Part shown: piece by piece, positions 6,076-17,598 of the stretch
Layout of the letters: each line of letters begins with the position of its first letter
Position numbering within the stretch: position 1 is the first letter of the stretch
Source: Myxococcota bacterium
Lineage (GTDB): Bacteria > Myxococcota_A > UBA9160 > SZUA-336
NCBI GenBank assembly: GCA_965247115.1
Contig: CBDFGR010000003.1
Span: 1,408,001-1,472,000 of the forward strand
Reading direction: 5' to 3'
DNA length: 64,000 nucleotides
Position numbers and translations under genes: made by a program
Notes under the pieces: model-generated
Databases searched by the model: none
Seen by the model: only the letters and a program-made list of their open reading frames with translations
What the model was told of the DNA's origin: nothing

Positions 6076-6215
6076 GGTGCTGCCGCCCCTCTCGATTGAT
6101 GCCCGTATTGGACCACACGATCCCGGACCTGGCTACCCGGGCGATCTGCGGATGCCCCGCCGAGCTCGTGACCCGCACGCTGAGCATGCGCGAGCTCAGG
6201 ACTAGCGTGATCCTG

Positions 6216-7131
6216 ACTGCCCCCGGGGGTAGTAGTTTCTTACAGAAAGAGCAAGAAAGTGCTTGACAGGTTTTGAGAAAGACACAAATGCAGGTTCCCA
6301 AGACTATTTCGGACTCCAGGTTGCTCCGAGGACTCGGTGAGCTCGTGGCAAAGAGTCGACAGGACGAGGCGGATCTGCTCGCGTGCATTGCGGAGGTAGA
6401 TCAGCGCAAGCTTTATCTCGGACAGGGCTACTCTTCGATGCATCGGTACTGCACCGAGGTGCTCCACTTCTCGGAGGCGACGGCCTTTCACCGGATCGGC
6501 ACTGCTCGCGCGTCGCGCACATATCCGCTCCTCCTCGAGCGAGTGCGTGAGGGCGCGCTTCACCTGTCGGGTGCGAGCCTGCTCGCCCCCAGGCTCACTC
6601 CGGAGAACCACGCAGAGCTACTCGACCTGGCGCGCCACAAGAGCAAGCGCGCGATCGAAGAGCTTCTGGCCAACCGCGCGCCGAAGCCGGATGTACCGGC
6701 GCAGGTAAGGAAGCTCCCCGATCCTAAGACGGCTTCTGCTCTCCGGATGCCCGCGGAGATCTTCGATCGAGCCCTCACTTTGCTGCTCGAAGACGCGAAG
6801 CGGAGGAAGTTCGCCCGGACGGCGAGACCCCGTGCTCGGTCGACGGCCTCGCAAAAACCTGCGTCTAGGCATATCCCAGCGGAGATCAAACGCGCTGTCG
6901 TCGCACGGGACGGAGGTCGGTGTGCGTTCGTCGGATCGAACGGTCGCCGCTGCGGCTCCTGCGACTTTCTCGAGTTCCACCACCTGGATCCCTGGGCCAG
7001 GGCCAAGCGCCACGCGATCCCCCGAATCGAGCTGCGCTGTCGAGGCCACAACCACTACGCGGCGTTGGAGGACTATGGGGCTGCGTACATGGCGCGCTTC
7101 GCAGGGCGAGAGCACTGCCCCCGGGGGCAAT
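6216..7131 (+). mobile_element. Putative palindrome-bounded HNH element, copy 1
   Basis: ACTGCCCCCGGGGGTAGT (6216-6233) and ACTGCCCCCGGGGGCAAT (7114-7131) bracket the HNH ORF; same layout at 16320-17588. Confidence 0.5.
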
Positions 7132-7154
7132 CGGACGTAAAGCCGCAGGAATGA
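6288..7154 (+). CDS. DUF222-like/HNH endonuclease domain protein, copy 1 (internal in-frame deletion relative to copy 2)
   Basis: RDGGRCAF...RC...EFHHLDPW...LRCRGHN zinc/HNH-type C-terminus; clear paralogue of 16563-17594. Confidence 0.85.
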   Translation: MQVPKTISDSRLLRGLGELVAKSRQDEADLLACIAEVDQRKLYLGQGYSSMHRYCTEVLHFSEATAFHRIGTARASRTYPLLLERVREGALHLSGASLLAPRLTPENHAELLDLARHKSKRAIEELLANRAPKPDVPAQVRKLPDPKTASALRMPAEIFDRALTLLLEDAKRRKFARTARPRARSTASQKPASRHIPAEIKRAVVARDGGRCAFVGSNGRRCGSCDFLEFHHLDPWARAKRHAIPRIELRCRGHNHYAALEDYGAAYMARFAGREHCPRGQSDVKPQE

Positions 7155-7186
7155 CGACAACCGCGCGCAGCGGATCGGGTCCTGAC

Positions 7187-8158
7187 TCACTCCGCGGTGA
7201 GGGTGACAGTGATGCTGTCCCGGTGAAGCCCGCCGAGGCTTCCGGAAAGTGATCCGATGGTCACCTCGATCTCGTACACATCGCCTCCTGGCCCCGTCAT
7301 GTCAGATGTGGACGAGGCGATGGGGATCGGCGACCCGCTCGTGAGATCCGCTGGGACACCGTCGACCTCGAGGGTGTAGGGGACCGAGCTACGCAACGAA
7401 GCGTGTGCCATCGTCCCCCGATTGTGGGACTGCAGGCTCACGTCAAAGCTCGTGTTGCCACGCGCGCGCAGGTCGAAGCTCAGGCTCTCCCCGCTGGAGA
7501 ACGTACCGAAGTCCAGCTCCTGCGAGACGTCCGCTGCGTTGAAGGGCGCCCCCGTATCCACGAGCGAGACCTCGACCATCTTGGACGCTCTGGCTCGATG
7601 GTGCTTCGTAGCGCTCTGCCGGGGGACGTAGACATCGCCCACCTCCTCGTGCAGGTGAAAGCCGAGTCGGTCCTGGTAGCGACTGTTCGAGCCGGGCACC
7701 ACCTGCCCGGCGGGGATGGACCAGTAGTAGGTGTGCCTGTGCGCCTCTTGCTTCGCATCCACATCGGTGAACTCACCCGTGATCACCGCACGCCCGAACG
7801 TCATGTCCATCAGAATATTCGCGAGCGAAGCCGAGTCGTGCACGTTGTATAGGAGCTTCCCCCGCGGCCGAGATAGCTCGCGAGGATCGAAGACTCCCGC
7901 CCCACCTTCCGAGATACCGATCGCGTAGCGGCAGCTGCCACCTCCCGTCTTCCGCACACGGATCTCGACGGGTTGTACGTACTGTGCAGCGTCGAAGCAG
8001 TCGTAGCTGCTTCCCCCTCCTCGCCAATCGACGGGGTCCATGTCCGTCAGGTGGATCCGACCGCAGCCCGTCTGCGCGCGCGCCGGCAGCGAGATGACCA
8101 GCGCCGCACAAATCGAGAGCCCCAGCCTTCCGGCTACCCTTCGCGCCTGCTTGATCAT
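7187..8158 (-). CDS. Putative pilus tip adhesin (spore coat protein U/Csu-like two-domain subunit)
   Basis: Signal peptide MIKQARR...PARA after AAGGAG; C-terminal pilin strand GLHRDSITVTLTAE; last gene of the usher operon. Confidence 0.75.
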   Translation of the reverse strand: MIKQARRVAGRLGLSICAALVISLPARAQTGCGRIHLTDMDPVDWRGGGSSYDCFDAAQYVQPVEIRVRKTGGGSCRYAIGISEGGAGVFDPRELSRPRGKLLYNVHDSASLANILMDMTFGRAVITGEFTDVDAKQEAHRHTYYWSIPAGQVVPGSNSRYQDRLGFHLHEEVGDVYVPRQSATKHHRARASKMVEVSLVDTGAPFNAADVSQELDFGTFSSGESLSFDLRARGNTSFDVSLQSHNRGTMAHASLRSSVPYTLEVDGVPADLTSGSPIPIASSTSDMTGPGGDVYEIEVTIGSLSGSLGGLHRDSITVTLTAE

Positions 8159-8177
8159 CGCCGAGGTCTCCTTTCGT

Positions 8178-10712
8178 TCACAAACCTGGAAATGGAAGCT
8201 CGCCCACGTCGTACAGACCGGTGGTACCCTCGGGAATCTCGAACTCGATCGATCGTCCCGGAGCGAAGTGCAGACTGAGCTCGTAGCGTCCCGGACGCAG
8301 CCCTCCACGGCTGAACTTGCCCTTCCGGTTCGTAAAGAGGACGAGCTCCTCACGGGGCTCTCCGAGTGCTCTCACCACACCCGCCTGGAGGCGCACCGGC
8401 TCCCCATCCATGGTCAACCTGCCTCGCACGACGGCCATCGCGTCCTTGCCGACCCGGATCAGGAGACCGCTCTTGTAGGTTGGCCGAGTGGCGAAGAACT
8501 CCTCTCCGAGGTCAAAGCCCGGAGGTAGGTCCGGCGCGTCGATGGCAACCGCACGGATCTGATAGGGAACCAGGTTCGGAAGGACGGCCGGCCCGAGGCG
8601 GTCGATCTGGACGCCTCCCCCGCCGGAGCGATCCACGCCGATCGTCTTGCCAGCGAGGCTCTTGTGCCGGGCCACCAGCGCAAAGCTCTGGGAGATCGGG
8701 CGCGAGATCGCGAACTCTCCGCCTGCGAACGCCAGAGCGCTGGACACTCGCACCGACGTCCGGTGCTCGTCGAGCCCTCTCGCTGTTCTTGCGGAGGTAG
8801 AGCGCTGGAACAGCTCCGCCTCCAAGCGCGAGCCGACGTGTTGGAGGGAGCCCGCGAGCTCGTACTGCTCGGGCCTACGCGATACACCAACACTGGTCGC
8901 AGTTCCGCCGATGCTCCGACTGGGTGTTCGTTGCCACTCGAGCTGCGTCGAGTGGTCGGTCGTGTCGTGGTTCAGACGCACGGTGTGATTGCGCTCGCGA
9001 TTCGTCCAGGTGACCGTCACGAACGCGCTCTGCTCCGGGCGCTCACCCGAGGCCAGGGTGCGATCCAGGCTGAGCTCCACCTCCCAGTCGCGAAACAACC
9101 TCCGCCGCAGCGACAACGACATCGTGCTGCTGTCAGACGTGTCGCCCCTTCCGAGCGCGTAGGCTGTGGCAACGCTGCCCCGGACTCCCGTCGACCAGAA
9201 TTCCTGGCTGACCGAAGCCGAGAACTCGTACGCCGTGGGGTTGTCGGGAACGGCACCGCCCACACCCGTGAATCTCCGCGACCTCGACAGCGCCGACACG
9301 ATCCATCGTCGCCGATTCTGGTTCTGCGTCGTTCCGTCGTAGTACTCGTACTGCAGTCGCCCCGCGTGGCTCGCCCCGGCGTCGTCGTCGTCGCTCAGGG
9401 CCACATCTGCGCGCAGCGAGCCCCACTCGCTCGCGAAGACGGCCTCCAACCCGAACAGGCGCCGCCGCCTGTCCCCTTGCAGGTTTGCGCCGAGCGTCAG
9501 CCCCTCGCTCAGGCCGTAGCGATGAAAGAGCGAGTAGCCAAAGTTGTCCCGGTCGTAGCGAATCACGTCACGCTCGAATGTGGGTACGCCTGCCGCGAGC
9601 GAGAACTCGCGCGTGCCCACGGCAAGGAGCCTGGGCTCGAACGAGAGTCCGAAGTGAAGCTCGCGCTCGCGCCCCAGGCTGTCCCGCATGCGAATCAGCA
9701 CGTCGTTGATCCCGGTCCCGAGCCGAAAGTCGCGAAGGTCGTAGCGACCCGGGAGGAGCTGCAGGCTCCGGACCAGCCGCCCGTTCACGATCACCTCGAC
9801 TTGCGAGGGCAGGTCCAGGGTGAACTCCTGGGAGCCTGCGGGCTCTACGACGCGATACGGCTGGAGATCGAAGTTCGTTGCGACCGTGAGCCCGCCAAGC
9901 GCCTGGCGACGCTGAAAGCCAGCGGTCTCGTAGGCGAGGTCGCCGAGCTGGACCCGGATCTGGCGTTCCGGGAGATCCCGAACCAGCCGCACCTCTCGTC
10001 GCTTCCAGGGGAAGCGCGCGTCCTCTTCGGCAGAGACCGCCCCTTCCAACACCCAGTCATGCAGGTTTGCAGCGCCGTCGAGCTCGAGACGCATGGGCTG
10101 CAGCCCCCTCTTCAGAGCCGAGGAGGTGGTGCCAATCCAGTCGAACGCGCCGCGCGCGTTGAGAAAGGCGCTGTAGGCCTGGGGCTCGACCTCCACTGCC
10201 GCAAACACCGAAGGCTGGCCTCCGCGGAGTCGGATCACTCGCAGCCGGCTCAGCTCGGGTGGGACCGTCACCGCGACGCTGAGGTTGCTGCGGTCGAAGT
10301 CTGCCACCAGACCGACCTCCATGAGGGCGGCAAGCGACACGTAGCCGTCCGCGTCTGCGGCGCGAGCGATCCTGTTCAGAAGATCGGGCCTCAGGGTCTC
10401 CCCGAGCAGCACCAGGAGCACGCTGCTGCGCAGTCGCACCCGCACGAGATCGCCTGCGACGCGTGCCGGGACAGCGCGCCGAAGCCTGCCGTCGACAATC
10501 ACGGGGAGCTCCAGGGCCAGCTCCTCGACCGTTTGGGAGTGACCAAACACCCTCTCGAAGACGGGTCCGGACTCGGTCCCTGGCTCCTGTGCCGCCGCAC
10601 TCCCCGAGCGAAGAGCTAACACGCCCAGCAGCAGTGCCAGCCAGATTCTGGCTTCAGAGAGCCGCCTCGGGGCAGGGGCTGCGGAACGACGCCTGGGGGG
10701 GAGGAGTGCCAC
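8178..10712 (-). CDS. Fimbrial outer-membrane usher protein
   Basis: 844 aa, signal peptide, LPSQVEVIVNG, PGRYDLRDF, HRYGLSEGLTLG, ISRPISQSFALV usher motifs. Confidence 0.88.
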   Translation of the reverse strand: MALLPPRRRSAAPAPRRLSEARIWLALLLGVLALRSGSAAAQEPGTESGPVFERVFGHSQTVEELALELPVIVDGRLRRAVPARVAGDLVRVRLRSSVLLVLLGETLRPDLLNRIARAADADGYVSLAALMEVGLVADFDRSNLSVAVTVPPELSRLRVIRLRGGQPSVFAAVEVEPQAYSAFLNARGAFDWIGTTSSALKRGLQPMRLELDGAANLHDWVLEGAVSAEEDARFPWKRREVRLVRDLPERQIRVQLGDLAYETAGFQRRQALGGLTVATNFDLQPYRVVEPAGSQEFTLDLPSQVEVIVNGRLVRSLQLLPGRYDLRDFRLGTGINDVLIRMRDSLGRERELHFGLSFEPRLLAVGTREFSLAAGVPTFERDVIRYDRDNFGYSLFHRYGLSEGLTLGANLQGDRRRRLFGLEAVFASEWGSLRADVALSDDDDAGASHAGRLQYEYYDGTTQNQNRRRWIVSALSRSRRFTGVGGAVPDNPTAYEFSASVSQEFWSTGVRGSVATAYALGRGDTSDSSTMSLSLRRRLFRDWEVELSLDRTLASGERPEQSAFVTVTWTNRERNHTVRLNHDTTDHSTQLEWQRTPSRSIGGTATSVGVSRRPEQYELAGSLQHVGSRLEAELFQRSTSARTARGLDEHRTSVRVSSALAFAGGEFAISRPISQSFALVARHKSLAGKTIGVDRSGGGGVQIDRLGPAVLPNLVPYQIRAVAIDAPDLPPGFDLGEEFFATRPTYKSGLLIRVGKDAMAVVRGRLTMDGEPVRLQAGVVRALGEPREELVLFTNRKGKFSRGGLRPGRYELSLHFAPGRSIEFEIPEGTTGLYDVGELPFPGL

Positions 10713-10730
10713 GACGGCGCGACGGCACCA

Positions 10731-11489
10731 CTATCTTCTGACCGCTCCATCGAAGTGGAAGGTCGCCTCGACGGGTCCGAAGGGGAGCTCTTGCGGCCAG
10801 GGTAGGAGAAAGCGTCTCTTGTGCCCGGCCAGGATGTTCTCTCCGCTCATACCAGCGAGCTTGTTCGGGCCGAGGTCGAGAGCAGCCGCAGCGTCCCCGT
10901 TCGCCTCTCCAGCGAGCGACAAGCTGAGATTACGCAGGATTGCGTGAGCCTGGCCGCGGTTGTGGAGCGTGACGGACAGCTGGCGCTCGCCGCTCGACTC
11001 CTCGGCAGCGACGTCCTGCAGTACAACGTCTGCTCGGACGCCGGTGGGCCGGACGTAGATCGAACCGATGTAGCGGACGAGGATCCTGACGGAGCCTCCG
11101 GACTCCTCCGCCGGCTCGAGGTCGACCGGAAGCTGCTCTGCGATGATGCGATAAGCCAGCTCGTGCTCAGGGTCCGCATCCCCGATCCATTGCACGCGGA
11201 CGATCTGACTCTGCTCGGGCTCGAGCACGATCTGCGTGGGGAAGACGACGAAGTCATCGTCTGCTTCGGTCAGCTCGTCGCTGCCGTCGAGATTCATGAG
11301 CCTGCGGAACACGCTGATCTCGACGGCGATCTGCTTGCCGGAGTTGTTCTCGACTCTGAAGGTCTGGTTCGCGCCGGGGCCCGACGGATCGAAGTCCGCC
11401 GTGAACGGAATGAAGCGAAAGGCTTCAGCGGGGAGCGGCGCGACGCACAGGAGAAGACCAAGGCAGAGGGGGAAGAGTCCTGCTCTCAT
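10731..11489 (-). CDS. Periplasmic pilus assembly chaperone (PapD-like)
   Basis: Signal peptide; FVVFPTQIVLEP, QIVRVQW, ELAYRIIAEQLP, HNRGQAH motifs. Confidence 0.88.
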   Translation of the reverse strand: MRAGLFPLCLGLLLCVAPLPAEAFRFIPFTADFDPSGPGANQTFRVENNSGKQIAVEISVFRRLMNLDGSDELTEADDDFVVFPTQIVLEPEQSQIVRVQWIGDADPEHELAYRIIAEQLPVDLEPAEESGGSVRILVRYIGSIYVRPTGVRADVVLQDVAAEESSGERQLSVTLHNRGQAHAILRNLSLSLAGEANGDAAAALDLGPNKLAGMSGENILAGHKRRFLLPWPQELPFGPVEATFHFDGAVRR

Positions 11490-11525
11490 GGTCTTCTGTT
11501 TCGGCCCCACCAGGGCCACACTGAA

Positions 11526-11587
11526 GACCCGGCCGGCTGTGGTCAGGGCCGGCCGGGTCCAGGCTCAGGGTCGGTTCGAACCTGAGC
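11526..11587 (-). terminator. Twin GC-rich hairpins between pilin and chaperone genes (attenuator or mRNA stabiliser)
   Basis: 12-bp IR GACCCGGCCGGC 11526-11537/11548-11559; IR GCTCAGG/CCTGAGC 11563-11569/11581-11587; no U-tract. Confidence 0.5.
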
Positions 11588-11596
11588 TAAGTGTTC

Positions 11597-12118
11597 CTAC
11601 TTGGCGGCGATCGTGAAGGTAATCGTGTCCGTGTAGGTGTCGGCCTCGATGAAGCCGGGATTTCCGTACGAGATGTCCACGAGGTTCGCGGACCCGCCCG
11701 AGCCCGTGGGCGCGCTGGCATCGGTCACGGTCATGGCGGCACCGCTGCTCAGATCCACCCCCGTACCGCCGTACGAGAACGTGTACGCCACGCTGTCTGT
11801 GCTCGTAGGGCCAAGCGGCTGGAGCACGCTGCTGTTCGCGGATTGTGCGGTGACGGTGTAGCCGTCGGCGTCGTTGCAGGTCTCGTTGACCGAGCCGACG
11901 TTCAGAGCTGACTGGGCACTGGTTAGCGGCAGATTGTCTGCCACACCGGCGACCGGTGTGACGGAGACGTCACAGGCTGCGACCACTGAGCCTGAGAGAT
12001 CGAGATCTCCTGTACTGGCGGCAAACGCCGGCGTTGAACTTCCGAGCAGCAGGAAAGCCATGAGCAGACTGCTGAACCCGACCCTGGACCTATACGATGA
12101 GGATGACCAACAATTCAT
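11597..12118 (-). CDS. Pilin subunit (spore coat U/Csu-like), likely major pilin
   Basis: Signal peptide ending PAFA; LSGSVVAAC...ETCN Cys pair; C-terminal ADTYTDTITFTIAAK; start uncertain (12142, 12118 or 12061). Confidence 0.82.
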   Translation of the reverse strand: MNCWSSSSYRSRVGFSSLLMAFLLLGSSTPAFAASTGDLDLSGSVVAACDVSVTPVAGVADNLPLTSAQSALNVGSVNETCNDADGYTVTAQSANSSVLQPLGPTSTDSVAYTFSYGGTGVDLSSGAAMTVTDASAPTGSGGSANLVDISYGNPGFIEADTYTDTITFTIAAK

Positions 12119-12126
12119 GCCAGCTG

Positions 12127-12154
12127 GTATCGGTAGCGCCATCCGTGAACTTTA
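12127..12154 (-). promoter_or_regulatory. Sigma28 (FliA)-like promoter upstream of the second pilin
   Basis: TAAA-N16-ACCGATAC on minus strand, starting TAAAGTT. Confidence 0.55.
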
Positions 12155-12241
12155 GGGACAGCACTCCGAGCAGCCAGGCCCCGTGTCGGCCTCCGCCAGG
12201 AATCGCAATCAGCTTGTGGCTCTTACCGCTGCTGGTTCCTC

Positions 12242-12766
12242 CTACTTTGCCGCTACTGTGAAGACCAGAGTGTCCTCGTACGTGCCGCCAACCTGACTGG
12301 TGGCGGCCGCATACGAGACGGTGACCGCTTTCGTGACCCCTGCGGGACCCGTGCGGTCGGCCGTACTGGTCACGAGGACCGGACCGACTCCACTCAGATC
12401 CGCCTGGGTGTCATCGTACTTGAGCATGTAGCTGACGGCGTCGAGCTCTCCCAGGAAGCTCCCGCTGCCCAACGAAGAGACCTCGATCGTGTAGCCGGTC
12501 GGGCTGTTGCACGACTCTGTCACGGAGGCCACGGCAACATCCGTCTGACTGCTCGACAGATCCAGGGAAGTGGCAGCCTGCGTCGGATCCACCTGGATGC
12601 TGCAGGCCAGAGGAACCTGGCCGCGGAGCTGGAGCGCACCCGAATCCCCTGCAGCTGCGAAGCCAGGCAGCGAGACGCACACGCAGGCGACGACGCCCGC
12701 GAGCCACGCTGAACGCTTCGCGATGGGGAATGAGATTCTGAGGCTTTGGGGGGCGGGTGCGCCCAA
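12242..12766 (-). CDS. Pilin subunit (spore coat U/Csu-like), first gene of operon
   Basis: TTG start behind AAAGGAG; LRGQVPLAC...ESCN; C-terminal GGTYEDTLVFTVAAK; paralogue of the adjacent pilin. Confidence 0.8.
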   Translation of the reverse strand: MGAPAPQSLRISFPIAKRSAWLAGVVACVCVSLPGFAAAGDSGALQLRGQVPLACSIQVDPTQAATSLDLSSSQTDVAVASVTESCNSPTGYTIEVSSLGSGSFLGELDAVSYMLKYDDTQADLSGVGPVLVTSTADRTGPAGVTKAVTVSYAAATSQVGGTYEDTLVFTVAAK

Positions 12767-12772
12767 TCTCTG

Positions 12773-12867
12773 CTCCTTTCGGCAGCCGTTCGACCCGCCC
12801 GGATGTTCCGGGTTGGGGCACTGGCTTTGCGTCCCCGTGTCTCCACGGGTTTGCCTTTGTCGAGGAG
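12773..12867 (-). promoter_or_regulatory. c-di-GMP-I (GEMM-I) riboswitch, copy 1
   Basis: GGCAAA-CCCGTG-GAGA-CACGGG-GACGCAAAGCC...GGCTGCCG; GNRA loop in P2 and receptor-like CCCCAAC/GCGGG in P3. Confidence 0.9.
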
Positions 12868-12927
12868 ATGGACACCCGCGTCCACTCCCGACCCCCCGGT
12901 GTCGGCCGGGGGAGCCTTCTTGGAGAC

Positions 12928-12954
12928 GTATCGGTACCGGGTCCAGCATCTTTA
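12928..12954 (-). promoter_or_regulatory. Sigma28 (FliA)-like promoter for the pilus operon
   Basis: TAAA-N15-ACCGATAC (consensus TAAA-N15-GCCGATAA). Confidence 0.7.
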
Positions 12955-13276
12955 GTCGTTTGTTGGCCAGCAATGGAAACCTCCCGACGACTGTGCGCAG
13001 ATCCCCCCAAACAGCGAGAGGTTCAAGAACCGTTCCCGTATTCCCTAGATCAACGAACACCCGAGTTGAAGCGCGCGCTTCCGCCTACCGTTGCGCACCG
13101 GCGAGGGTGGGAGAAAAACAGGAAGGCGAGAAGCTCTCTTCCACAATGTGCCAGTCAGCTCCTCTCACTGAGTCGACTCTTGCGTCCACACGAGCGCCTA
13201 TACTCGCAGCTATGCAATGCGTTGCCATACTAGAAGCGCAGGCCACGGAAGTCGCGGCGAGCTTGAGGGGTCGCTC

Positions 13277-14119
13277 ATGAAGCTCAGCCTCAACCTGCGC
13301 AACTGGGGACCACAGGCAGAGCGCGAGCTCATGCTCGAGTGCGCTCGAGCTGCGGACGCGTCCGCGCTGGACACGCTCTGGCTCAACGACCACGTGGCCG
13401 TCCCGGCGGCAGCGGCCGCGCGCGCGGATCCCGACTTCGCGACCGGAATCCAGGTAGACATCCTCGCGACGCTCGCCTTCCTGGCAGGCGCCACCGAGCG
13501 CATAGGGTTGGGGACGGCTGTGCTGCTGCTGCCCTACCGGCCCGCGTTTCTCACGGCAAAGTGGGTCGCGAGCATCCAGGCGCTCGCTGGCGAGCGCCTT
13601 CGTCTCGGCGTCGGGACGGGCTGGATGCCGGCGGAGTTTCGGGTGCTCGGTGTGGAACGCCGTAAGCGCGGGGTGCTGACCGATGAATCGCTGGCGCTGT
13701 TGCGCCGCTGCTTCGAGAGCGACGAGCTAGAGCGGAACGGCGAGCGAATCCTGTTCCAGCCGCGCCCAGAGCGTCCGTCCATCTACGTGGGCGGCGCGCC
13801 CCCGCACGCCTTCCGCCGCGCCATCCTGTATGGGGATGGCTGGATCCCGGCAGGCGTCGAGCCCGAGGTCCTCGCAACCCAGATCCCCGAGCTGCAGAAG
13901 CTGGCGGAGGAAGCCGGACGGGACCCCCTCGAGGTCATCGCGATGAAGACGCTCCCGCTGGAGGATCTACCGCGCGCGGTCGACTACGCGGGGAAGTTCG
14001 CAGCGGTTGGCGTGGATCATCTCGTCCACACCCAGCGCTACGACAACGCCGCAGAGTACCGCCGCAACATCGACCTCCTCTGCGAGCGAATCCTCCCCGA
14101 GATCGCCTCGTCCGAATAG
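13277..14119 (+). CDS. LLM-class (probably F420-dependent) oxidoreductase, Rv2161c-like
   Basis: LWLNDHV, LAFLAGATERIGLGTAV, LGVGTGW, YGDGWIP motifs. Confidence 0.88.
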   Translation: MKLSLNLRNWGPQAERELMLECARAADASALDTLWLNDHVAVPAAAAARADPDFATGIQVDILATLAFLAGATERIGLGTAVLLLPYRPAFLTAKWVASIQALAGERLRLGVGTGWMPAEFRVLGVERRKRGVLTDESLALLRRCFESDELERNGERILFQPRPERPSIYVGGAPPHAFRRAILYGDGWIPAGVEPEVLATQIPELQKLAEEAGRDPLEVIAMKTLPLEDLPRAVDYAGKFAAVGVDHLVHTQRYDNAAEYRRNIDLLCERILPEIASSE

Positions 14120-14140
14120 GTCGGGCCTCAGTCGTCGGAG

Positions 14141-16132
14141 CTAGTTGCCCTTGCAAGTGCCGTTCTTGCAGTTGTTGGAGCAGCAATCGCTGTTGGAACT
14201 GCACGTAGCCCTCTTGCCCCCGCACGCCACGCACTGATCGCTACCCTCATCGCAGCCCAGGCCTGGGCACGGAGCGCTCCCGCTCTGGCAACTCTCACCC
14301 GAGCAGAGCTCGGCGCCGTTGCAGAACTGGCCGTCGTCGCACTCCGGGTCGGATGTGCAACCGCCATCAACGCCCGCACCACCGCAAGACCAGCCGCTCT
14401 CGGAACACCGCGAATCGCCGCAATCGGACAGGTCACCGTCGCAGCAATACCGGCCGCGAGGATTCCCGTTGGTCTTCTGTCGGCAGTCATTCGGACAGTT
14501 ACCGCAGTGTTCGCCCGCCTCGCAGGTTCCGTCGTTGTCGCAGGCCGGCGCATCGCATGAGTCGGTAGCCCCGTTACATATTTCGCCACCAGCGCAGGGG
14601 TCTCCGCTCGACTGACACGCTCCGCCGACACAAGTCTCGGTCCCGGTGCAGAACTGGCCGTCGTCACACTCCGGGTCGGTCGTACAACCGCCCTGGGGAT
14701 CGAGAAACGGGGAAACGGAATCCCAGTAGAAGGCGAGCGCACCATCAACTGTCCAGTTGTTGATCGAATCGCAGTCATCAAGACAGTTGAAGCCACAGCA
14801 ACCGGAGAGCTGACCGACCACCTCGCTTGCGCTGTTCAGAGCCGGCGAGCCGCTGCTGCCACCCATGGTGGCTCCGATCCGGTCCTCGCTGTAGATTCGT
14901 TCGCCGAGCGGCCACTGGCCGCATATCGGCGAAGTCGTGGTGACGTCGTGCTGCGAGTACACCTGCGGACCGAAGTTGGCGTTGCTGACCCTGTAGAGAC
15001 TCGCGCCATGGGTGTAGGCAATAGGAGAGTTATTCCAGCCGAGGAACGTGGCGCCAGCCGGAGGGGCCTCGTCAAGCGTCAAGAGCGTGTAGTCGCCAGC
15101 ACCTCCCGTTGCCACGACCGTGACACCGATGGTGCTAGCAGGCGGCGGCGTGCCGCCGGTTAAGAGGCTGTCGGGACACGAACCGCGACACGAATCCGTT
15201 GTGTAGTTGAAGAAGGTCTCCAGGTTCGAGATGTCCGAACTGACGCAGTGATTGGCCGTGAGGAAGTATGGGATCTGCGAAGCGCTATCCGTGTCCACCA
15301 GCAGCCCTCCAGAGCAGGTGTTGATGAACTGTCCAGTGATCCACTCCATCTTGGCGACGGCATCCTCTGCCGGCGCTGCTGGCCCCGTGTTCATGCAGTT
15401 CACGTCGACCACGCATGGAGCATTGTTCGAGCAGGGCCAGTTATCGTGGCTCTGCTCCCGCGGGCGTGGCGGTCGGCCGCGGATGTGGCCAACATCCGAG
15501 ACCGTGAAGGACATCTTTGGCCGGTCGTCAGCTGGCGCGTCGCCGCTGTAGCTCAGAACGACCGTGCCGGTGTCCGAGACTATCGAACGAGTCCAGAAGT
15601 CGCCGTCACCGTTGCGACCCTGCCCGACGTATGGCCCGTGCGCCTGGCCGTTCGGTCCGAGGAAGAACATCTCGGTGTTCTCGGGAAGCGAGAAGCCCGT
15701 GAAGTGCACGCGGATGGCCTGCGCGCCGGGAGACGTGACCGTCATCGCCCACTCGAAGCTCCCGTCCACATTCTGCCGGCCGACGCCGTGATTGAAGGCT
15801 TTCCCGAAGGGCTTTCCAACGAGCCTCTTGACGGACTTGACGACGCCGACGCGCAGCGGTGCGCTCCCGCTGGGGAACGGCTCGGCCAGATTGTCCAGAT
15901 CCTTCTGCGTGATGCCGACGCTGAGCGGCGTATGAGCCACGCCAGGGGGAACGATGGACGCGATCTCCTCGTGGAGCTCCCGCTCCCGCGCAGCTTGCTC
16001 GGCAATCGTCAGGCCCCCTCGTACCACCTCCGGAGCAGCACGTCGGTTCCCAACGCCCTGGGCGGCCGTTGGCGTCGGCAGGCCGAGGCAAATGAGAATG
16101 GCGAAGCCGAGAAAAGCAGAGATCGTGCGCAT
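14141..16132 (-). CDS. Secreted trypsin-like serine protease (lysyl-endopeptidase-like) with Cys-rich C-terminal repeats
   Basis: Signal peptide; CSGGLL, FLTANHC (His), GDYTLL (Asp), GGSSGSP (Ser). Confidence 0.85.
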   Translation of the reverse strand: MRTISAFLGFAILICLGLPTPTAAQGVGNRRAAPEVVRGGLTIAEQAARERELHEEIASIVPPGVAHTPLSVGITQKDLDNLAEPFPSGSAPLRVGVVKSVKRLVGKPFGKAFNHGVGRQNVDGSFEWAMTVTSPGAQAIRVHFTGFSLPENTEMFFLGPNGQAHGPYVGQGRNGDGDFWTRSIVSDTGTVVLSYSGDAPADDRPKMSFTVSDVGHIRGRPPRPREQSHDNWPCSNNAPCVVDVNCMNTGPAAPAEDAVAKMEWITGQFINTCSGGLLVDTDSASQIPYFLTANHCVSSDISNLETFFNYTTDSCRGSCPDSLLTGGTPPPASTIGVTVVATGGAGDYTLLTLDEAPPAGATFLGWNNSPIAYTHGASLYRVSNANFGPQVYSQHDVTTTSPICGQWPLGERIYSEDRIGATMGGSSGSPALNSASEVVGQLSGCCGFNCLDDCDSINNWTVDGALAFYWDSVSPFLDPQGGCTTDPECDDGQFCTGTETCVGGACQSSGDPCAGGEICNGATDSCDAPACDNDGTCEAGEHCGNCPNDCRQKTNGNPRGRYCCDGDLSDCGDSRCSESGWSCGGAGVDGGCTSDPECDDGQFCNGAELCSGESCQSGSAPCPGLGCDEGSDQCVACGGKRATCSSNSDCCSNNCKNGTCKGN
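14321..14692. repeat. Intragenic 45-bp near-identical repeat pair (14321-14365, 14648-14692) encoding GGCTxDPECDDGQFC
   Basis: GCAGAACTGGCCGTCGTC(G/A)CACTCCGGGTCGG...CAACCGCC occurs twice. Confidence 0.85.
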
Positions 16133-16319
16133 GGTTGCCTCGTCGAAGTTCCGCATCGTGAGGGAAAACGCGAGCAGTTACAAAGACTTAGGGGAGTATG
16201 AGCCCGCGATTTCCCGGTAGTCAAGACTGTACGGCCGCAGATCGGCGCGCCACCCAGACATCGGACTCGCGACGGATCCGCTGAACGCCTTTGATCTCGA
16301 GCGCATCGTTGTGCGGAAT

Positions 16320-17588
16320 AACTTCCCCCGGGGGAAGTTGGGATCTAAGAAATTTCTGGAAAGTCCCAGATTTCCGTTGACAGGTTTTCGAAAGCACAAC
16401 CAGTTTGCGTCTCTCGCGACCAAGATCCCGTTCTCTGGTCTAGGCACGGCGTTCTAATCATTCTCTTTCGCAGTTTTGGTTTCGGAGATCGCAGACAATC
16501 TCGATCAGGTCGTAGATCAGATCCTCCGACACCGAAATACGTCGTGTTATGTTCGAAAGGCAATGAACATTAGCCCCCTCGGACGTATGTCCAATGACGA
16601 GCTACTTCGTGCACTGGACAAGCTCGTAGCGACTAGTCGGAATGTCGATGCAGATCTGCTCGCTCACGTCGCTGAGGTAGATGCGCGGCGCCTTTATCTT
16701 TCGGAGGGCTGTTCCTCAATGTTTCGCTACTGCACGGAGGTGCTGCACTTCTCGGAGGCAACTGCGTTTCACAGGATCCACGTGGCTCGTGCTGCGCGCA
16801 GATTTCCGAGTCTTCTGGATCACGTTCGGCAAGGGCGGATCCATCTTGCCGGGCTGAGCTTACTCGTACCGCATCTCACACAGGAGAATCACGTCGAGCT
16901 TCTTGACATGGCGTACCACAAGAGCAAGCGCGCAATCGAGAAGTTCCTGGCGGAGCGCTCGCCAAAGCCCCGCGTACCAGCACTTGTCCGCAAGCTCCCA
17001 GAGACCAAGGCTGTGTTCGCAGGGCCGGAGACGTCGGACTTCCGCGAAACAAACGAGCAGCCGGCGCTTCGGGCTCCGCGCGCTCAGGCCGCCTCGCTGC
17101 CCGCACCTCGCTCTCAGAACTCCGCTCCACAACCACTCGGGCACCGGTGCTACAAGATCCAGTTCACCGCTAGTCAAGAGTTTTGCGACAAGCTTCGCGA
17201 AGCCCAGGCACTACTTCGGCATCAGCTTCCGGGCGGCGATCTCGCTCAGGTTATCGATCGCGCGCTTTCCCTGCTGCTAGCCGAGACACGACGGAGGAAG
17301 TTCGCGGAGACCTCACGACCGCGGAGCCGATCCGAAGACCGCACCAGCCTTGCATCTCGGCACATTCCGGCGGCAATCAAGAGGGCGATCGCTACGCGAG
17401 ATGGAGGCCGATGTGTCTTTGTCGGGCGGAACGGACGTCGGTGCCAATCAGCGGATTTCGTCGAGTTCCACCACCTGGATCCCTGGGCGAGCTCGAAGTA
17501 TCACTCGGTCGAGGGGATCGAGCTGCGGTGTCGGGCGCACAACCAGTATGCGGCGGATCGAGAGACTCAGCCTCCCCCGGGGGAAGCT
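16320..17588 (+). mobile_element. Putative palindrome-bounded HNH element, copy 2
   Basis: Perfect 20-bp palindrome AACTTCCCCCGGGGGAAGTT (16320-16339) and AGCCTCCCCCGGGGGAAGCT (17569-17588); locally lower GC. Confidence 0.5.
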
Positions 17589-17594
17589 ACGTGA
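16563..17594 (+). CDS. DUF222-like/HNH endonuclease domain protein, copy 2
   Basis: ATG 16563 aligns with the copy 1 start; SSMFRYCTEVLHFSE; RDGGRCVF...EFHHLDPW...LRCRAHN. Confidence 0.87.
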   Translation: MNISPLGRMSNDELLRALDKLVATSRNVDADLLAHVAEVDARRLYLSEGCSSMFRYCTEVLHFSEATAFHRIHVARAARRFPSLLDHVRQGRIHLAGLSLLVPHLTQENHVELLDMAYHKSKRAIEKFLAERSPKPRVPALVRKLPETKAVFAGPETSDFRETNEQPALRAPRAQAASLPAPRSQNSAPQPLGHRCYKIQFTASQEFCDKLREAQALLRHQLPGGDLAQVIDRALSLLLAETRRRKFAETSRPRSRSEDRTSLASRHIPAAIKRAIATRDGGRCVFVGRNGRRCQSADFVEFHHLDPWASSKYHSVEGIELRCRAHNQYAADRETQPPPGEAT

Positions 17595-17598
17595 GGGG

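Follow-up and report, generated by a model that had tools for sequence, protein, structure and literature searches.

The window analysed here is a 64-kb stretch of Myxococcota DNA (G000:C3:1408001-1472000) from a source genome of 5.17 Mb that is 98% complete. It contains two copies of a gene for a putative HNH nuclease, each enclosed by one palindrome upstream of the gene and another within its last codons; we refer to the gene with its leader and both palindromes as the cassette. A tblastn search found 14 copies of the cassette gene in the source genome, numbered E1–E14, and the window holds E11 (copy 1) and E12 (copy 2). The palindromic 10-mer CCCCCGGGGG occurs exactly four times in the window (at 6220, 7118, 16325 and 17574), compared with a mean of 0.14 in 100 shuffles, none of which reached four. 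Rereading of the sequence bore out the preliminary description of the locus: the four palindromes lie where it had placed them, with the 10-mer nowhere else in the 64 kb, their flanks are element-specific, the left ends of both copies have TTGACAGGTTTT in common (at 6263 and 16377), and the right-hand sites are translated in different frames, as CPRGQ in copy 1 and PPPGE in copy 2. Host DNA makes up the ~9 kb from one copy to the other and is syntenic in G002, a genus-mate of the source genome with flanks 84–90% identical; the closest named homologue of the gene (77% identity) also comes from a Myxococcota assembly.

An unbiased palindrome search of copies lacking the C5G5 core showed that the full site is 20 bp long, aACT-N4-CCGG-N4'-AGTt, and that the C5G5 core is merely one variant of this wider motif. 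The N4 spacer differs among copies, yet it stays complementary and agrees between the two ends of any one copy. Across 23 elements, this end-to-end agreement was 7.04 of 8 letters versus 3.63 ± 0.46 after shuffling (reached in 0 of 10,000 shuffles), and in the source genome alone it was 6.82 versus 4.45 (11 elements, p = 1e-4). The metagenome set described below was uninformative on its own (7.9 versus 7.5, 9 elements, p = 0.12), because nearly all of its elements have one spacer. Sequence identity between left and right ends is limited to the 20 bp (32 elements); in two copies from another genome (G010, loci L067 and L108) the direct repeat at each end continues for ~18–22 nt beyond the palindrome on its 5' side, unlike most. 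Both ends score at least 11/14 in 11 of the 14 source-genome copies, with E6 lacking its left end and E4 and E9 carrying damaged sites. In intact copies the left site precedes the start by 245–280 nt, whereas the right site is found at the gene end, the two being 1277–1318 nt apart in nine copies, and no other open reading frame (ORF) lies inside intact units. Outside the left site nothing is shared among source-genome paralogues (0.26), while the first 10–20 nt past the right site are common to them (0.45, 0.37), the common stretch reaching ~25 nt; in Armatimonadota these first 10–20 nt are not common to copies (0.32, 0.26).

Genome-wide, the 10-mer CCCCCGGGGG occurs 23 times in 5.17 Mb, and 13 of these occurrences are at the ends of seven paralogues, so the two are linked. 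It is this linkage, rather than abundance, that is non-random: the 10-mer ranks tenth lowest of 32 GC-only palindromic 10-mers (range 2–143), and over-abundance was rejected. The fixed letters of the 20-bp site match 72 times in the genome, and 16 of the 72 have complementary spacers (~0.6 expected), 12 of them being cassette ends. One 10-mer, at C3:1259144, is part of a different 120-nt repeat. Two unrelated dispersed repeats, of ~100 and ~120 nt, are present in many copies in both the source genome and G002 (L055:4770-4870, L062:3020-3145). Methylation of the central CCGG was considered and set aside: 12 of 19 variant centres are C-to-T changes at CpG, but CCGG is undepleted in the source genome.

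The same arrangement was found beyond the source genome. We collected 63 homologue loci from GTDB genomes, seven of them from G002, and 80 from metagenomes. Among the GTDB loci, a site was present on the left in 26 of 47 testable cases and on the right in 27 of 49, compared with 3 of 329 control windows; among the metagenome loci, the corresponding counts were 19 of 68 and 16 of 66 (controls 1 of 69). Site carriers belong to the Myxococcota, the Armatimonadota and the Acidobacteriota (Vicinamibacterales), with one Eisenbacteria locus. Paired sites that co-vary per element, as the preliminary description had anticipated for homologues, were thus recovered, though about half of the loci lack the 20-bp site. 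One Myxococcales assembly holds at least seven gene copies without detectable end sites (L083, L087, L093, L094, L096, L100, L114). The protein family is large, with 17,669 protein clusters at E ≤ 1e-10 in a profile search; in the ESM Atlas the matches are unnamed or HNH clusters, one of which has DUF222 in 23% of its members. No family match was found in the plasmids and phages searched, and the viral contigs searched gave only one weak partial match.

Empty alleles retaining one palindrome, which the preliminary description had suggested looking for, were sought and found at two loci, in exact form at E5 and with another spacer at copy 2. In three of four runs, from three studies, 1277 nt are skipped at E5, 18 letters fit both sides of the joint and exactly one palindrome is left; two of the E5 runs hold, besides, a second single-site allele. 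Contigs of all four runs examined for copy 2, from four studies, skip the cassette (Table 1), and one of these runs is from a sample that also holds the window in full. The single palindrome at this empty site has a spacer unlike the resident's two ends. Between window positions 12938 and 16304, the haplotype of other strains is ~8% divergent, compared with 1–2% on either side, and this segment ends at the copy 2 empty site. No circle joint was present among the joints listed at copy 2 and E5, which come from contigs that drop rare forms.

Comparison with G002 shows that sites also change their tenants. At the E14 site, G002 carries an opposite-facing member that is 78% identical, with another spacer and no right site; at the E11 and E13 sites it carries remnants (a 200-nt 3' remnant and a 63-nt remnant, respectively), each with another spacer. 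There is no palindrome at its E5 site and, by eye, neither element nor palindrome at its E2, E9 and E10 sites; its match to E1 and E4 covers one flank only. A free site at C2:1346988 has its right flank in common with a full G002 element. At C2:491025 (C2:490930-491090, L059:2930-3090), a 157-nt insert behind a TAG stop resembles the E7 left end including its palindrome, is bounded by CTAG and CTAA, and corresponds to a clean, palindrome-free empty site in G002. The E5 joint, the palindrome-free sites and the replaced residents together indicate that the palindrome is a real crossover point that does not always pre-exist, and that tenants change. Because several orthologous sites are palindrome-free, the palindromes are not simply duplicated targets, one of the roles the preliminary description had offered. 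At E12, the outer letters look swapped relative to G002 (L021), with AACT on the left and AGCC/AGCT on the right here and the reverse there, in the same gene orientation.

Two sites, C3:1479385 and C3:1481021 (C3:1479375-1481031; L236:2376-4031), enclose cargo other than an HNH gene, with DUF4160, helix-turn-helix and ParD-like ORFs that look toxin-antitoxin-like, and an IS110 fragment. At the place of C3:1479385, G002 has two sites around different cargo and a ~50-nt direct repeat that includes the host stop codon. Ordinary insertion sequences (IS) also occur nearby. The source genome carries 28 near-identical copies of an IS5-type element with CTAG ends (e.g. L049, C2:504345-505631), one of which, unrelated to the cassette, interrupts E3, and several G002 IS5 copies lie 50–150 nt from cassette ends; we rejected these as part of the cassette, since they are of an ordinary, unrelated IS5 type. 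In G002 the E7 locus exists in two versions with 88% identity (L016, L017), each beside an IS5 copy; they had been considered as a recent duplicate marking the outer ends, and are two versions of one locus rather than a transposition. Target-site duplication was likewise dropped, the flanks being too diverged at most sites. CTAG lies within 310 nt on both sides of 4 of the 14 copies, and its enrichment is inseparable from stop codons, with 40% of convergent gaps containing CTAG.

To what extent the encoded protein fits these sites was judged from predicted structure. An AlphaFold2 model (62 rows; predicted local distance difference test score, pLDDT, 83) has a helical domain (residues 7–133) that a disordered linker joins to a strand-helix-helix module, followed by an HNH domain. 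Three of the top four VIA rows for residues 7–133 belong to the ParB/Noc/KorB family: ParB-parS (Z 8.7, root-mean-square deviation 7.4, 128 residues aligned), Spo0J (8.5, 3.7, 108) and KorB-operator (7.6, 3.7, 109), Z values of 7.6–8.7 that the tool rates as middling. Foldseek placed Spo0J-parS at probability 0.93 with E 0.38, and ParB-type matches at E 0.38–0.55. These matches suggest, without deciding the matter, a ParB/Noc/KorB-like DNA-binding domain in residues 7–133. A homodimer model of residues 186–252 scored 0.47, the best of three controls scoring 0.00, with contacts agreeing in at least 96% and pLDDT of at least 69; 20 of 30 solved homodimers attained the score mark used, as did 1 of 23 monomers, and the score may reflect likeness to solved structures. 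Its antiparallel strands near residue 199 and helix-helix contacts near residue 233 form a ribbon-helix-helix layout, although a monomer fold search of this middle module returned no clear match. The HNH domain resembles that of IscB and Cas9, and its catalytic and zinc residues are kept in 63–66 of 71 site-bearing proteins, nearly all the others (all but one) not covering these positions.

The preliminary description had called the two proteins DUF222-like/HNH paralogues. In Pfam, neither window protein has a DUF222 or HNH match at E ≤ 0.1, and the DUF222 link is a distant one. With PF02720, copy 2 scores 15.6 bits and the best relative 21.1, below the curated cut-off of 24.4; only the first 90–125 model positions match, and among 62 relatives one matches DUF222 at E ≤ 0.01 and 11 match PF01844. 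The three best DUF222 matches in the whole source genome are nevertheless cassette genes (E 0.02–0.18, model positions 2–89). Judged by these profile matches, the DUF222 homology is specific and sub-threshold, as would be expected of a distant relative rather than a scored member. No tyrosine, serine or DEDD recombinase family match was found, and the model comprises three small domains, in agreement with the preliminary description, which had seen no transposase or recombinase.

We further asked how protein and site vary together in 71 non-redundant protein-site pairs (74 before near-duplicate removal; loci without a site or N-terminal domain left out), which carry at least 21 spacer variants. 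Residue 69 on the predicted recognition helix (numbering follows window:16566-17591, where position 69 is the His at 16770-16772) follows the spacer, with Gly at CGGT, Asn at CGTT, CGTC and GGTT, Arg at GGTC, and His at GCCC and TCCC. In pairs below 62% identity, residue 69 is the same in 74% of those with a common spacer, compared with 7% of the remainder, ranking first of 250 columns. On a tree built without the recognition helix, 22 of 26 residue-69 changes coincide with spacer changes, which ties it for first of 127 columns; second and fourth places go to positions 65 and 73, which share its face of the helix. Disjoint nearest pairs gave 14 of 20 versus 2 of 15 (p = 0.001, rank 2). The protein therefore likely reads its own spacer directly via the predicted recognition helix, insofar as sequence co-variation can tell. 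As to the earlier suggestion that the sites are used by the encoded protein, binding is made plausible by the predicted fold, the residue-spacer co-change and the dimer model.

The leader contains promoter-like halves at an unusual distance. In 35 of 36 selected leaders, a distance of 165–170 nt separates TTGACA from an extended -10-like motif. In unselected loci, 41 of 114 have this pair at 167–170 nt, and each of the other distances is seen once at most. Across the source genome, 11 of 12 such pairs are at 164–168 nt, 10 of them at the cassette family; a relaxed scan gave 14 matches at 164–171 nt, of which the four outside the family look like chance. E14 and its G002 counterpart have ordinary promoter spacing. 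Source-genome copies have a second, weaker -35-like hexamer at normal distance, which may allow transcription of the gene even in the absence of the far half. The 148-nt spacer showed no 10.5-bp periodicity (mean z -0.5), the leader no conserved open frame, and the six Y1 transposase loci of the source genome do not have the split layout. The ~168-nt spacing, fixed across phyla, constitutes a separate constraint on the cassette.

Copy 1 is a deletion derivative. Relative to E9, it has lost ~195 nt of leader and ~190 nt of mid-gene sequence, and its ORF lacks the linker and, from the predicted dimer module, both the strand and the first of the helices. Contigs of three other studies appear to carry the lost parts, as judged from breaks at 6268/6277 and a 17242-6752 joint. 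Between the two copies, window positions 7187–13060 hold a chaperone-usher pilus cluster (usher, PapD chaperone, spore-coat-U-like subunits), ahead of which lies a c-di-GMP-I-GGC riboswitch (12777–12864, minus strand).

Table 1 Features of copies 1 and 2 in the window.
Feature	Position	Strand	Remark
Copy 1 (E11) left 20-bp palindrome, spacer GCCC type	6215-6234	.	8/10 pairs
Copy 1 TTGACA, -35-like half of split promoter-like motif; matching -10-like half lost	6263-6268	+	
Copy 1 ORF, 288 amino acids, internally deleted, HNH motifs intact	6288-7154	+	
Copy 1 right palindrome, within last codons	7113-7132	.	8/10 pairs
Copy 1 ~22-nt tail past right site, contains stop codon, common to several paralogues	7133-7154	+	
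Stretch absent from copy 2 empty allele, replaced by 31 nt with one different-spacer palindrome	16305-17595	+	
Copy 2 (E12) left 20-bp palindrome, spacer TCCC type, perfect	16320-16339	.	10/10 pairs
Copy 2 TTGACA, -35-like half	16377-16382	+	
Copy 2 extended -10-like half, 168 nt past TTGACA (ordinary promoter: 20)	16545-16553	+	
Copy 2 ORF, 343 amino acids, full length	16563-17594	+	
Predicted ParB/Noc/KorB-like helix-turn-helix DNA-binding domain (distant DUF222 N-terminal part)	16584-16964	+	
Predicted recognition helix face, positions 65, 69 and 73	16758-16784	+	change with spacer
Predicted ribbon-helix-helix-like homodimer module	17142-17309	+	homodimer model
Predicted HNH nuclease domain; Cys283, Cys293, Glu-Phe-His-His, Cys322, His325 and Asn326 conserved	17349-17570	+	
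Copy 2 right palindrome, 10 nt from stop of convergent bipA/typA	17569-17588	.	9/10 pairs

The explanation that we favour, and to which we give roughly even chances, is that the cassette's protein binds and nicks the cassette ends, and that host recombination copies, replaces or collapses the whole unit. Each locus would be one copy of a ~1.3-kb selfish cassette between two matching 20-bp palindromes, both of which a predicted dimer would bind through its ParB-like domain. The HNH domain would nick DNA at or near the palindromes, and host recombination could then collapse the cassette to one site, convert the resident or a single site with a paralogue, or copy the cassette; single palindromes would be collapse scars, re-usable as landing sites. 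This account draws on the paired sites, their match within each element, the crossover inside 18 bp, the tenant changes and the domain predictions. Binding is suggested by the fold together with the residue-spacer co-change, the intact HNH domain is the sole basis for proposing nicking, and host repair is put forward as the mover because no recombinase or covalent-catalysis residue is evident. First entry into palindrome-free sites, mostly just behind stop codons, is left unexplained. The preliminary description's mobile, or once-mobile, unit with element-specific palindromes is supported, while the att-like repeats that it had offered are not supported as classic att sites.

Several observations weigh against this explanation. 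Slippage is enough to collapse a palindromic direct repeat of 18 bp, and it needs no nuclease. The empty alleles sit on haplotypes 4–8% divergent, so they do not fix the order of events, and E7, E8 and E12 are present in place in G002. The 44 site-less homologue loci with enough flank, six of them copies in one Myxococcales genome, have no other common end repeat, which means that the gene persists and multiplies without such sites. The closest paralogue pair in the source genome is only 82% identical, and no transposition event was caught among the copies examined. On the protein side, there was no Foldseek match at E ≤ 0.001 and the Z values stay within the middling range, and the source-genome copies have another residue in place of the middle Asn of the HNH motif. 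Finally, the residue-69 column was chosen after a view of the first table; in held-out metagenome loci, it predicts 15 of 22 spacers (6 of 11 outside the dominant class) and ranks seventh, and independent-pair tests, while pointing in the same direction throughout, comprise too few pairs (3–6 each, p 0.125–0.5).

An alternative that we consider unlikely is that the palindromes are true att sites, such that the cassette excises as a one-site circle and enters a single chromosomal palindrome through conservative recombination, with its own protein or a recruited host recombinase as the catalyst. The exact single-site allele at E5, the restriction of end identity to 20 bp, and the site pair around non-HNH cargo at C3:1479385-1481021, with the two sites, ~50-nt direct repeat and other cargo of G002, would all suit such a system. 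They have to be set against a unit without recombinase or transposase, the hydrolytic nature of HNH enzymes, the palindrome-free orthologous sites, and the lack of a circle joint among the joints listed from contigs. The other spacer at the copy 2 empty site speaks against att sites as well, and with the ~25 nt common to paralogues past the right site it runs counter to both a duplicated target and a classic att site; duplicated targets are further contradicted by the palindrome-free G002 counterparts of E5, C2:491025 and, by eye, E2, E9 and E10.

It is just as improbable, in our judgement, that the palindromes are operators only, with a dimer that binds both ends, loops the DNA and represses its own gene, while the cassette spreads passively through horizontal transfer, paralogue gene conversion or IS5-type outer ends acting in trans, and single sites arise as passive deletions. 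The predicted KorB/ParB-type fold and dimer module suit looping, and many homologues lack sites. Cassette turnover is slow, with no paralogues above 82% identity and no circle joint among the joints listed, as passive spread would have it. The IS5-type element with CTAG ends (28 copies), and the 157-nt left-end fragment between CTAG and CTAA behind a stop that is absent in G002, could likewise reflect outer ends. Against operators, neither site lies over the promoter halves, the left one being 245–280 nt ahead of the start and the right one at the gene end; CTAG flanks both sides within 310 nt in only 4 of 14 copies; and the HNH catalytic and zinc residues are kept in nearly all site-bearing proteins that cover them.

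We think it very unlikely that the sites are REP/IS200-IS605-type single-strand hairpins processed in trans by a Y1 (HUH) transposase, with HNH as a passenger like IscB/TnpB. The arms do stay complementary as the spacer varies, the right site is subterminal in the source genome, 11 of 14 copies face a convergent 3' neighbour (42% expected, p = 0.006, from crude gene calls), and the source genome has six Y1 (PF01797) matches; all six, however, are at least 50 kb from any site. Mismatches at 115 sites show no clear hairpin strand bias (G.T 23 versus A.C 17), and on this count the earlier idea of hairpin cleavage sites gains no support. Free sites are just a handful, the spacer tracks the cassette's own protein, and the empty alleles retain a palindrome, unlike IS200/IS605 excision, which is precise. 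That the leader is a guide RNA for an RNA-guided nuclease of the OMEGA kind, as its fixed length across phyla (~250 nt) and the IscB- and Cas9-like HNH might suggest, is scarcely credible given folding z-scores of 36 leaders that centre on 0 (-2.2 to +2.0), no Rfam match at either copy, and no RuvC or bridge helix in the predicted model.

Returning to nicking of own ends and host recombination, a broader claim can be made only tentatively, as a conjunction more doubtful than its core: that these loci represent a widespread class of mobile element free of transposase and recombinase, in which a ParB-like/HNH protein with its own palindrome code, a helix face reading a four-base spacer, would combine self-nicking, cargo mobilisation and a split-promoter switch. 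Two sites would then allow mobilisation of unrelated cargo lying between them, toxin-antitoxin modules for example, and promoter halves 148 bases too far apart would stay so until looping or deletion joins them. If self-site nicking drives movement, this would be mobility by a hydrolytic nuclease without a strand-transfer enzyme, and the family a natural set of orthogonal protein-site pairs. The analysis provides a concrete candidate for the binding site, alleles that are naturally empty, and a specificity code that may reside in one helix, so that how DUF222-HNH-like genes multiply becomes testable with one protein and a few oligonucleotides, offering a lead on the spread of a large, unexplained gene family.

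Among known systems, homing endonucleases are hydrolytic and spread through host repair, and free-standing HNH homing endonucleases resemble the cassette in being hydrolytic nucleases that would spread in this way. They differ in that their target is the empty allele, their own locus being left uncut, whereas the cassette itself carries its predicted recognition site twice, at many unrelated loci.

The REP13E12/DUF222-HNH genes of mycobacteria (PF02720 and PF01844) are likewise multicopy and dispersed, with a helical N-terminus, a C-terminal HNH and no transposase, although the cassette genes fall below the DUF222 cut-off. In the accessible text of two studies, REP13E12 loci are gene-conversion hotspots and inversion breakpoints without defined biological function (PMC13061034, PMC13157036), and these distant relatives in M. 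tuberculosis account for 87 gene-conversion events (PMC13061034); the same portions of text make no mention of paired palindromic ends, single-site alleles or a split leader (PMC13061034, PMC13157036). More widely, the preliminary description knew of no such ends for this family, and the literature searched, which excluded subscription papers and preprint supplements, contains no description of them. What is new here are the exact single-site alleles, the tenant changes, the cargo without an HNH gene between two sites, the model of the dimer, and the joint change of residue and spacer.

ParB/Noc/KorB proteins with parS, NBS and OB are similar in predicted fold and in their symmetric 16–20 bp site. 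According to the accessible portion of one study, a few residues at or after the recognition helix set ParB/Noc specificity (R173, T179, A184 and G201), and NBS, the Noc site consensus, has a CCC-GGG centre, as cassette sites do (PMC7383237). Unlike these proteins, the cassette protein is without an N-terminal CTPase domain and is fused to a nuclease, and its sites, with at least 21 spacer variants, bracket their own gene rather than an origin region. REPtrons (RAYT/TnpA-REP), as the available text describes them, contain a nuclease gene flanked by its own palindrome class, with free copies behind stops (PMC6006769), and in both respects REPtrons and IS200-IS605 resemble the cassette. Their nuclease is HUH/tyrosine rather than HNH, however, and the cassette has two sites in direct register rather than REP arrays, a multicopy gene with few free sites, and no clear hairpin strand bias. 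By analogy, we propose that the cassette may work like a REPtron or a homing element built on ParB-type recognition.

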